Source: a virus
Taxonomy: Duplodnaviria > Heunggongvirae > Uroviricota > Caudoviricetes
IMG/VR virus record: IMGVR_UViG_2897352509_000007
DNA: 64,000 nt
Reading direction: 5' to 3' (one strand)
Position numbers: made by a program
In this document: positions 3,001 to 6,000 of the stretch, one piece after another
Layout of the letters: each line of letters begins with the position of its first letter
Numbering within the stretch: the first letter of the stretch is position 1

Positions 3001-6000
3001 TGTTTGCGCATTGATGCCGAGATACGCTTCCAGTCTTCGCGGTCGTTGTCGATAACTTCATTTTTTGCCCAGCGATGGATGCTGCCGTCAATGTTTCCGG
3101 CATCCACATCACCAGGCCAGAGAGCGTAGGCCAGTTCGTCATCCAGTGTTTTCCATGTCTGCTTATATTCGCGACGAATGACTGCAGTGACAGGGGGGAT
3201 TTTTTCTGCTGAGTTTTCAGTGTGCTGTCGGTGGACTCTGGCGCGGGCGAGATCAACAACAGACGTGTATTTTCCGGTTTCCTTGCGTTCACCTTCGCGA
3301 CGTTTTTTCCAGATGCGCATTTCTGCCTGAATTTCGGGCCATTTGGCACCAGGCTTACATTTATGCTTAACCCACCCGATGGCATGCAGCTTAAGCTCCG
3401 GATACATGGCGTTAACTTCTGGCATTTTCATCAACGCTTCAACGATATGTCCGTCGAATGTTGCCATGTCTTCCTGCAACAATTCCTGCGCGCTAATCAC
3501 CATATCAACGGTGATGTTTTCACATGTGTCGAACTTAACCATGACAGCGTTCTGTACTTCAGGGGCCAGCTTGTCAAAAGCGACGTTCATCGGATCGGAT
3601 TCAGTCTCAACCGGGACAAAGGAAGCAGCCCCCTCATCCCAGCGGTTTTCCTGCATATATTCAGCATCCCAGGAATCGAGGGCAGGGCGGGGTATACCGG
3701 GTTTATCCTCGCAAACAAGAAATTTATAAGCGCAGTCCTGAGCAGCCGGATAATGCTCCAGGAATTGCCAGTGAAATTTTGCGCGGGCGCGACGTTCATC
3801 ACCGGCTTCAATGGCAGTGGCTACAGCGACTGCACCTTCTTCCTTTATTGCCTGTTCGTCCGGAATGGCGGCGCAAATAAAGACTTTACTCATTTTGTTT
3901 TACCTCATTACAGATTTAAGGGTGAACAAATCCCTGCCATTGCTGGCATATAAGAATGAAATCGGATGTTTATTACGGAACTGTTTTAAAGACCTGCCGG
4001 GATTTCGTTATTATCATGGTGAATAACTTTATCGACAGGGTAACAGTTACCGGGAATTTTCTGTTCGGTTGCTGCAGTCACACACTCCTGCATTGTCCTG
4101 TGAACACTGACTGCAATATCAACTGGCTCTCCGGAAACAAGAAAAACTGTCAGAACAAGTGCAAATGCTGTATTCATTGCCAGCATCCTTTTTGTATCGG
4201 ACGTAAACGGGCCAGCATTGAAAGAATGCATATTTTATTTAATAACTCCCGTTCGTGTTTTCTCTTGTTAATGGCATCTTCAGTAAATACAGGGTTACTG
4301 ATAGTGACACCAATTTCAAAACAACCTTCAGACGTATTAACGTTTGGTAATAACGTTTCCATTATCGCGTCCTCAACAATGAATTTTGTGATGCGGTGCC
4401 TGGTGCCTCCAGGTGACGTTAACCAGTTAACAATTAACGCCGGATACAGAGAATCCACCCATAACACTGTTTTTAGCTTTAACTGTTCCGCGTGCGCTTA
4501 GCCGCATTCACTGCATCACAAAATTCACTTTAAAAAGGGCGGACATCAGTTCATGGGCAAACAGATGCCGCCAAACGTCACCAGAAAATTGATAACAGAG
4601 GGCGTTGCAGCGGGGTTGTCACTTAAGCGTATGGTCAACCTGACAACCCGGTGTCCTCAACGGGGAAGGAATAACCCCGCCATACTTACCGCTGCGCCAT
4701 TTCGCGGAGTGCCACAACCGGAAGCGCACGGTCGACGAAAATTTAACGACAGGCTATCTATGAACCAGCAACCTCGCCGTGCGCTTTCGCGTTATGCTCT
4801 GACTTTTCAGAGAAATATCCTTTCAGTAAACTGTCAGTGCCGGATGTTCACCCGTGTCCGGCGCACGCACTCCACTTCACCCGTGGAGAACTCCTTAATT
4901 ACCAACCCTCAGGAGGGTGAATGTTAAAATCAACTCTTATTGCTAAATGCCTTTATCAAAATCGCATGGTAAGCAGCATTTCAATAGGCGAGTCTGCAGT
5001 TAAAAGTATTTTCGAAGAGTACTTTCCCGGGCATGATTTTAATAAATGGAATACCAAATTACCGCCAGCAGTTTCAACGCGTATTCTGAAAGCAACCGAA
5101 AGAGCAAGTACAATTCGCGTTAACTATTTCATTAAAGATTTGTGGGATCTTTGATATCCACAGAGCCTAAAGTATGTGCATATGGATGTGCTATTATGCG
5201 CCCTCGCAGATTTGCATCATTTTCTAAATTCACTGAACGAAACAGGGCATCAACAAGGCTCTGTACAATGCAAAGGCAATCGAAGACTGTCGCCGTTTCT
5301 GTTTTGATTGATGAAAGAACATGGCCATTCACGCAAACAGAAATTACCCGTTTATTAACATCGCTTTCCTGCTTTTGATTATCAGAACCATATAGCCCAG
5401 AAAAAGCATTGCGCACATTACGAACCATATTATCGATGGTTTCTTTTTCTGCGGTACTAAGGTCAAGAGTAGCCAGTTGTGAACGAACTATATTCGATGC
5501 CATTTCCTGTAATGGCGTTGGTAAATCTTTAAATTCCATTATTAGCCTCGTTGGTTAGCTATTAACGTGGGTATGTAATCATTCTGGCAATGCTTAATGC
5601 CGCTGCTTTTTCCAGATTGGTGATATCCTGCTCCAGAGCGGACAGATTTTCAGCCTGCTTAGCCCTGGCTTCATTGGCCCATTTCAGGTCCTGCACCGCC
5701 TTAATTTTCTGGTGCATCCACTCATAAAGTTCATCATCGGTATAGTCTGGCGCGATGATGACGGGGTCTCGTTTCTGCATGTCGGCTCCTTGTGGTTAGC
5801 GTTGCCTGCTTTTTAACCACGTCAGGCGAGGTGGTATCCTCTGAGGGGTCTGTTACTCGAGAGGAAATTGGTTATGAATACAATCAAGTTTTCTTGCCCA
5901 GAATGTGGTGGCTAAGTCTTTGACACATCCTTTAAGCCGCAGGGCTCTGACAGTTTCGCGGGAGCCATCTGCAAAAATTGTGGTCACCTTGTAACTGAAG

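Follow-up and report, generated by a model that had tools for sequence, protein, structure and literature searches.

A Variant dicF Allele with a Replaced Hairpin in an ompW-Integrated Prophage of Escherichia coli O157:H7

Introduction

DicF is the textbook prophage small RNA (sRNA) that arrests cell division, and in enterohemorrhagic Escherichia coli (EHEC) it links oxygen sensing to type III secretion. The DNA analyzed here, a stretch of 64,000 nucleotides (nt) from the IMG/VR virus record IMGVR_UViG_2897352509_000007 (Caudoviricetes), referred to below as the window, carries two dicF-like loci, each located between ydfC and dicB of its own lambdoid prophage (prophages A and B). One of them, DicF-B, is a canonical copy; the other, DicF-A, starts with the same sequence and then departs from it. 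The second locus raises the question of whether DicF-A is still a dicF gene and, if so, which of the regulatory activities of DicF such an RNA could exert. We conclude that DicF-A is a genuine allele of dicF: of the two known targeting modules, one has been replaced, with leader, seed, and terminator architecture kept. Our preferred reading, to which we assign a probability of roughly 0.55, is that DicF-A represents a hairpin-swapped, "seed-only" allele, i.e., a natural equivalent of the engineered mutant DicF21, provided that it is transcribed and processed like canonical DicF.

Results

Two dicF Loci in the Window

Both elements that the earlier note had placed in the window were found, and both lie on the minus strand:

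4532..4587, minus strand: DicF-A, variant dicF allele; predicted RNA starting at 4587 (5′ end), 51 nt long before the U5 tail
62773..62830, minus strand: DicF-B, canonical DicF with U tail (Rfam, 76.7 bits; identity to b1574)

At both loci, the window sequence is identical to that of E. coli O157:H7 str. EC4115. Read on the minus strand, DicF-A (4532-4587) is UUUCUGGUGACGUUUGGCGGCAUCUGUUUGCCCAUGAACUGAUGUCCGCCCUUUUU and DicF-B (62773..62830) is UUUCUGGUGACGUUUGGCGGUAUCAGUUUUACUCCGUGACUGCUCUGCCGCCCUUUUU. DicF-B is identical to E. coli K-12 dicF (b1574), and the Rfam model for DicF (RF00039) matched it at 62778..62829 (minus strand) with 76.7 bits over model positions 1-52, i.e., the whole model, confirming that this copy is canonical. 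DicF-A was not reported when the whole window was scanned at the Rfam gathering score of 48 bits; with permissive filters, the model aligned to 4537..4586 in a 321-nt search, scoring 43.5 bits (E = 1.7e-8). The earlier note had named a covariance-model score under the threshold as grounds for rejecting DicF-A; the score does fall below 48 bits, a result that bears on membership in the Rfam family and not on homology. Homology of DicF-A to dicF is secure, since it is established by synteny (ydfC ... dicF ... dicB) together with near-identical flanks. The alignment of the two window loci is ungapped over about 600 nt with about 97% identity, the hairpin core excepted; about 750 nt of the DicF-A flanks match canonical loci, flank identity to such loci being 97–98.7%, and leader and spacer are homologous. 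Conservation extends to the surroundings of the K-12 5′ end (AAUU/UUCUGG) and to the U tail. DicF-A shares with the DicF of the K-12 prophage Qin (b1574; RF00039) the ydfC–dicF–dicB position, an identical leader and identical nt 1–20, and a terminator-type hairpin followed by U5; however, it is 2 nt shorter and has nt 21–45 replaced, lacking both the CUCCG anti-Shine-Dalgarno (anti-SD) loop and the 3′ arm ACUGCUCUGCC. The proposal that DicF-A is a genuine homologue keeping the first 20 nt of DicF is thus borne out.

The 25-nt Patch and the Rebuilt Hairpin

DicF-A can be divided into a conserved 5′ part and a remodeled remainder:

4568..4587, minus strand: conserved single-stranded 5′ seed (nt 1–20), identical to canonical DicF in the alignment
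4543..4567, minus strand: divergent 25-nt patch (nt 21–45), replacing the canonical loop (with the CUCCG anti-SD) and 3′ arm
4538..4572, minus strand: rebuilt terminator hairpin (G16–C50), followed by C51 and the U tract (4532-4536); present in minimum free energy (MFE) and centroid structures

Among about 216 DicF-like IMG/VR loci, the canonical locus closest to DicF-A (L090) differs from it at 10 of 770 flank positions (1.3%, i.e., 98.7% identity), and all remaining differences between the two are confined to sRNA nt 21–45. The minimal edit distance in this patch is 10 over 27 nt, compared with 0.35 edits expected from the 1.3% flank divergence (Poisson, 6e-12); the clustering is far beyond chance. 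The new loop and 3′ arm read UGUUUGCCCAUGAACUGAUG, and a probe sequence to DicF-A nt 21–45 is GCAUCUGUUUGCCCAUGAACUGAUGU. A donor search covering the window and 2.1 Mb of related loci turned up nothing beyond chance-level k-mer matches, so that neither templated mutation nor conversion can be demonstrated. No intermediates between the A type and the canonical type were found among the about 216 loci either; ten clustered edits without intermediates suggest a single complex event or strong directional selection.

The hairpin of DicF-A (−17.3 kcal/mol) has a 9-bp lower stem separated by a U·U mismatch from an upper stem of 4 bp, which carries the 6-nt loop GCCCAU, while that of DicF-B (−15.9 kcal/mol) consists of a 7-bp lower stem, an asymmetric internal loop, and a short upper stem, of 5 bp in the MFE structure and 4 bp in the Rfam consensus, closed by a 9–11-nt loop carrying ACUCCG. 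The two folds are alike in that nt 1–15 are single-stranded (P(nt 1–15 unpaired) = 0.64 in both) and are followed by a terminator-type hairpin and U5; DicF-A thus retains the DicF architecture of a single-stranded 5′ region, one terminator-like stem-loop, and a U tract. Both the edit distance and the fold agree with the description, in the earlier note, of a remodeled middle and a rebuilt, GC-clamped hairpin.

Predicted Pairing with Known DicF Targets

Published genetics assign different targets to the two ends of DicF. The 3′ region pairs with the ribosome binding site (RBS) of ftsZ (DicF9; DicF23 with a compensatory mutant), while xylR pairs with the 5′ end (DicF3; DicF11 with a compensatory mutant) (Balasubramanian et al. 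2016, PMC5069750). DicF23 loses pykA regulation and affects ftsZ too, and DicF21 regulates xylR but neither ftsZ nor pykA, with normal growth, viability, and morphology (PMC5069750). The manX site lies opposite the DicF 3′ end (Azam & Vanderpool 2018, PMC5861419). The earlier note had taken the conserved first ~20 nt for the region pairing with ftsZ; this assignment does not hold, as mutagenesis places ftsZ pairing at the 3′/hairpin part, where pykA and manX also pair, and xylR pairing at the 5′ end.

Pairing was computed with K-12 target sequences from local duplexes and the opening energies of both RNAs; full-length RNAduplex had returned unrealistic duplexes with huge interior loops and was replaced by local duplexes and a shuffle control with 150 shuffled hairpins per target. 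The best pairings, with hybridization energies (Ehyb), were as follows:

ftsZ: DicF-B, nt 31–53 with −28..−7, Ehyb −22.7; DicF-A, weak hits via the shared 5′ end (best −7.5; total −5.1)
pykA: DicF-B, nt 25–43 with −18..+1, Ehyb −22.2; DicF-A, best hit weak and via the shared 5′ end (total −6.1)
manX: DicF-B, nt 35–54 with +35..+53, Ehyb −33.4; DicF-A, weak unrelated hits (best total −3.6)
xylR: identical duplex in DicF-A and DicF-B, nt 4–15 with +11..+21, Ehyb −14.8, total −12.4

The pairings computed for DicF-B reproduce the published target sites, and the xylR duplex common to both RNAs agrees with the genetics of DicF3 and DicF11. Shuffled hairpins reached the pairing of DicF-B in 4/150 (ftsZ), 1/150 (pykA), and 0/150 (manX) cases, and that of DicF-A in 80/150, 13/150, and 48/150 cases, respectively. 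In these computations, the hairpin/3′ region of DicF-A was no better than shuffles in complementarity to the ftsZ RBS or in pairing with pykA and manX, and had no equivalent of the pairing of DicF-B with pykA or manX; DicF-A is predicted to have lost these three targets because the remodeled part is the part that pairs with them. Pairing of its 5′ end with xylR +11..+21, as in K-12 DicF, is predicted to remain. An altered target range, which the earlier note had raised as a possibility, is therefore a sensible consequence of the remodeling in terms of predicted pairing. DicF-A is homologous to DicF, yet it falls short of two defining properties of the family, the Rfam gathering score and (as computed) complementarity to ftsZ.

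According to a review, DicF also binds an anti-SD within the pchA coding sequence (CDS). A regulator gene of the PchABC family (PerC) is present in the window, at 21280..21594 (plus strand) in the late part of prophage A, and the predicted fold of its leader sequesters the SD with CDS +23..+30, an anti-SD of the type that DicF reportedly opens. The shared DicF 5′ end is predicted to pair with CDS +23..+37 of this gene, equally in DicF-A and DicF-B. One 64-kb segment hence holds a DicF target family as well as two DicF alleles.

Distribution and Variation of the A Type

A 41-mer specific to DicF-A was present in 289 of 5,426 complete E. coli genomes, always at an identity of at least 99%; most carriers have one A-type copy per genome, with two at most, and the carrying serotypes include O157:H7, O55:H7, O121:H19, and O103. 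In IMG/VR, the exact 19-nt seed precedes only two allele classes, i.e., the canonical hairpin, with scattered point variants, and the A type, which occurs in 21 viral contigs (20 identical copies and one with U45C). The bulged base is the site of U45C, the sole natural A variant seen. Among canonical loci, which comprise two seed types (G11 and A11) and two flank types, the hairpin hardly varies, with the loop CUCC altered in only one of about 190; loss of this loop in DicF-A is, for that reason, a qualitative change. A-type loci were found in 12 distinct ±600-nt haplotypes with pairwise identities of 50–100%. In 19 of 20 A-type loci, dicB is located at a fixed +175 nt, and the adjacent DicB alleles are 100, 94, or 87% identical to the DicB of prophage A; because canonical DicF also adjoins the 100% DicB allele, the hairpin allele is not tied to the dicB allele. 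None of 50,697 phage records contained the A type; 33 of them have the locus, with a best identity of 93.3%. A contig scan (596 Gb) with the pattern TGGTGACRTTTGGCGG was discarded, as the pattern was too short and yielded only chance matches in unrelated phyla.

DicF Copies Counted in EHEC

"Four copies of dicF" are given for EHEC O157:H7, the lineage to which DicF-A belongs and in which it occupies the same kind of prophage locus, in passages of PMC7873438 and PMC11774850 that cite Melson & Kendall 2019, and an Rfam-based catalogue of strain EDL933 lists DicF_1-4 (PMC5331693). In the new EDL933 assembly, the A locus is found in the ompW prophage at 1,847,321 (minus strand), about 47 kb from a canonical copy of the catalogued type; its position in old coordinates, ~1,854,150 (via the RtT offset), matches none of the four listed DicF positions. 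In the EDL933 regions scanned with cmscan at the gathering threshold, two canonical copies (76.9 and 75.0 bits) were reported and the A locus was not; Rfam-based catalogues miss DicF-A because its 43.5 bits are below the gathering score. DicF_3, a 56-nt entry, was not found in the two EDL933 regions searched for it, and DicF_4 was not searched for. DicF-A appears to be an additional, uncounted locus beyond DicF_1-4 of EDL933. Balasubramanian et al. limited their dicF comparison to sequences >99% identical (PMC5069750). Our literature search found neither the core sequence of DicF-A nor natural DicF variants; key primary papers were outside its scope, and a prior description is possible.

Missing RefSeq annotation of DicF-A was rejected as evidence, given that the canonical copy is unannotated in all three O157 records examined (EC4115, EDL933, and 86-24). 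In NZ_CP008957.1 and NZ_CP017251.1 (loci L347 and L148), a locus tag is skipped between dicB and the next CDS at the canonical loci (EDL933_RS09900 and BHW77_RS13505) but not at the A loci, an indirect hint that only canonical DicF may once have been called as a feature. The same two canonical loci, located in the prophage beside the ompW prophage, carry A39G (GUGGCUG) in EDL933 (L347 5288..5339; genome 1894288-1894339) and in 86-24 (L148; genome 2579661). This change turns an upper-stem U-A pair into U·G, while the equivalent copy in the window has the exact K-12 sequence; canonical alleles thus differ between O157 lineages by structure-preserving point changes only.

Operon and Prophage Context

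Prophage A is an ompW-integrated lambdoid prophage with a dicBF-type operon (dicA-like / ... ydfC / dicF / dicB / DUF1482). Its gene order runs from a divergent Cro/CI gene through a dicA-like gene, two small open reading frames (ORFs), ydfC, a 135-aa ORF, the sRNA, dicB, DUF1482, exo, xis, and int, and it adjoins ompW. The relevant features are:

6416..6823, minus strand: dicA-like helix-turn-helix gene
6288..6317, minus strand: promoter-like site, dicBp-equivalent (TTGACC-18-TAAATT; consensus match only)
5562..5780, minus strand: ydfC of prophage A (ORF list; RefSeq annotation of identical sequence)
5132..5539, minus strand: extra 135-aa ORF between ydfC and the sRNA of prophage A
4174..4362, minus strand: dicB of prophage A (NCBIfam NF049927 CellDivInhibDicB, 132.7 bits, cut-off 100; RefSeq)
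62417..62605, minus strand: dicB of prophage B (NF049927, 102.2 bits; RefSeq)

The dicB gene of prophage A lies 175 nt downstream of DicF-A, and the DicB proteins of the two prophages are identical at 38 of 63 aligned positions (62 residues plus stop). Identical promoter-like hexamers occur in both prophages, in each case directly after the dicA-like repressor gene, where dicBp would be expected, the putative promoter of prophage B being at the equivalent place (63809->63781, i.e., 63781..63809, minus strand), with spacers of 17–18 nt. In the leader, 100–200 nt upstream of DicF-A (4689..4794, minus strand), 88 nt present in the window and in prophage B are missing in EDL933 and 86-24; this deletion is flanked by direct repeats of ~18 nt (window 4689-4706 and 4777-4794). 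Two long ORFs, one antisense to the dicF leader of each prophage, 4553..4927 (plus strand; 124 aa) and 62832..63167 (plus strand; 111 aa), are probably not genes, as they have no NCBIfam match and are frameshifted by the 88-nt indel in other strains; the first starts at an ATG created inside the new DicF-A loop. The spacer between dicF and dicB (4400..4548, minus strand) aligned below threshold with model positions 1-139 of STnc100, its 5′ part (18.4 bits, E = 0.057); this match may reflect chance or distant kinship of prophage leader RNAs. Elsewhere in prophage A, RNA elements above Rfam gathering scores were located at 11702..11851, 16481..16710, and 16823..17031 (plus strand) and at 17033..17092 (minus strand), comprising a sok antitoxin (103.9 bits), two tRNAs, STnc100 (175.2 bits), and AgvB. 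AgvB, an anti-GcvB sponge, directly follows STnc100 on the opposite strand, with 56.6 bits against a gathering score of 56.

Discussion

If DicF-A is made like canonical DicF, i.e., by an RNase E cut at the 5′ end and intrinsic termination, with Hfq binding, it would remain a repressor of xylR-type targets, those pairing with nt 4–15, and it could reach the anti-SD region of PchABC-family mRNAs via the shared 5′ end. Translation of ftsZ, pykA, and manX would not be blocked, and DicF-A should, because of this, neither filament nor poison cells; since neither filamentation nor toxicity is expected, it would be the natural counterpart of DicF21. The stronger and more regular hairpin may in addition alter how often transcription terminates, giving sRNA, rather than continuing into dicB. 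The spread of the new hairpin (289/5,426 genomes; 12 haplotypes), the position of U45C on a bulge, and the retention of dicB downstream are points in favor of the seed-only reading. With DicF21 and DicF9 (PMC5069750), DicF-A shares the loss of ftsZ regulation (DicF21 also that of pykA) and the retention of xylR, in DicF-A by prediction only; however, those mutants carry laboratory substitutions in an otherwise canonical hairpin, while the hairpin of DicF-A is natural, wholly rebuilt, and found in hundreds of genomes.

OmrA and OmrB are a pair of paralogous sRNAs with a shared end, a divergent module, and overlapping but non-identical regulons. DicF-A and DicF-B resemble them: the 5′ targeting region and the terminator architecture are conserved, and an internal segment diverges. 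Unlike in OmrA/OmrB, the divergent module of DicF-A is itself a known second targeting region, and known targets have been removed; moreover, DicF-A and DicF-B are prophage-borne alleles, while OmrA and OmrB are tandem genes of the core genome.

Several observations weigh against the seed-only reading. The 5′ mutant DicF3 also loses pykA regulation (PMC5069750), indicating that the target rules of DicF are not strictly modular, and our pairing predictions are purely thermodynamic. The pchA site of DicF is taken from a review, which leaves retained control of pchA by DicF-A uncertain. Across all A-type loci, there is almost no variation from −130 to +200; because the hairpin shares this constancy with the entire module around it, invariance of the A hairpin alone does not prove purifying selection and could reflect recent spread. 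O157:H7 genomes carry several canonical copies, so that DicF-A could be redundant and drifting, and the loss of 88 nt from the leader may affect its processing or expression in EDL933 and 86-24.

Some of these points would also suit a neutral relic, in which one complex mutational event (e.g., templated or by slippage in a quasi-palindrome, or short-patch conversion) left a passable terminator that hitch-hikes in a mobile ~330-nt module, without a selected role in trans. The ten edits within 25 nt against 1.3% flank divergence, with no intermediates in about 216 loci, suit a single event; the invariant module suggests recent spread; and the same genomes hold several canonical copies, while the 50,697 phage records contain no A type. 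We nonetheless consider this explanation rather unlikely: the new sequence is non-random, in that the stem it restores is longer and more stable and the U tract is kept; the 5′ seed and the leader have been left intact; the window and 2.1 Mb of related loci yielded no patch donor or template; and the allele occurs in 12 flank haplotypes and several serotypes.

DicF-A might instead act mainly in cis, its hairpin tuning termination, or processing by RNase III or RNase E, between ydfC and dicB and thereby setting DicB output, with activity in trans being secondary. The hairpin does lie 175 nt upstream of dicB, a distance fixed in 19/20 A-type loci, and its stem is more regular and slightly more stable (−17.3 vs. 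−15.9 kcal/mol) with a smaller loop; in K-12, the 53-nt form of DicF arises by early Rho-independent termination and the 72-nt form from read-through transcripts (PMC9438474). However, the two hairpins differ little in energy, no change is seen in the U tract or downstream sequence, and the whole loop would not have had to be replaced merely to tune termination. Nor is the hairpin allele linked to the dicB allele, canonical DicF also being found beside the 100% DicB-A allele. A simple terminator scan scored neither hairpin, which is uninformative in that it passed over the established canonical one as well (bulges, loop size). A primarily cis-acting role therefore seems improbable to us. We regard as more improbable still that the new loop and 3′ arm have gained mRNA targets of their own, giving a new regulon rather than merely a reduced one. 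The new loop is complementary to GUUCAUGGGCAAA-type sites, including a perfect 9-bp match in the PchABC-family CDS of the window (+66..+74); this match was rejected as evidence because it is no better than shuffles (53/150 reach it), and, with a loop of only 6 nt, the MFE structure offers few unpaired bases.

The seed-only reading can be extended to a broader proposal, which we advance tentatively and hold to be possible, short of probable. EHEC O157:H7, O55:H7, O121, and related strains would possess an additional, uncounted DicF that has evolved into, or been selected as, a natural separation-of-function allele, keeping the 5′ seed for metabolic (possibly virulence) control and shedding the ftsZ/pykA/manX loop, so that regulation is uncoupled from division arrest. 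Since searches based on Rfam or on >99% identity miss DicF-A, it would persist in published "all-dicF-deleted" EHEC strains, where it could account for some residual seed activity. DicF-A illustrates a blind spot of threshold-based annotation of noncoding RNAs, scoring 43.5 against 48 bits in spite of unambiguous homology, and what it offers is a clear prediction that can be tested and a caveat for practical work on dicF genetics in EHEC, not a new principle. If the proposal is correct, copy counts and multi-copy deletion strains of EHEC may overlook one seed-bearing copy, DicF-A would be a natural test of the two-module model built on laboratory mutants, and prophage sRNAs would be able to drop a toxic activity yet keep their regulatory reach.

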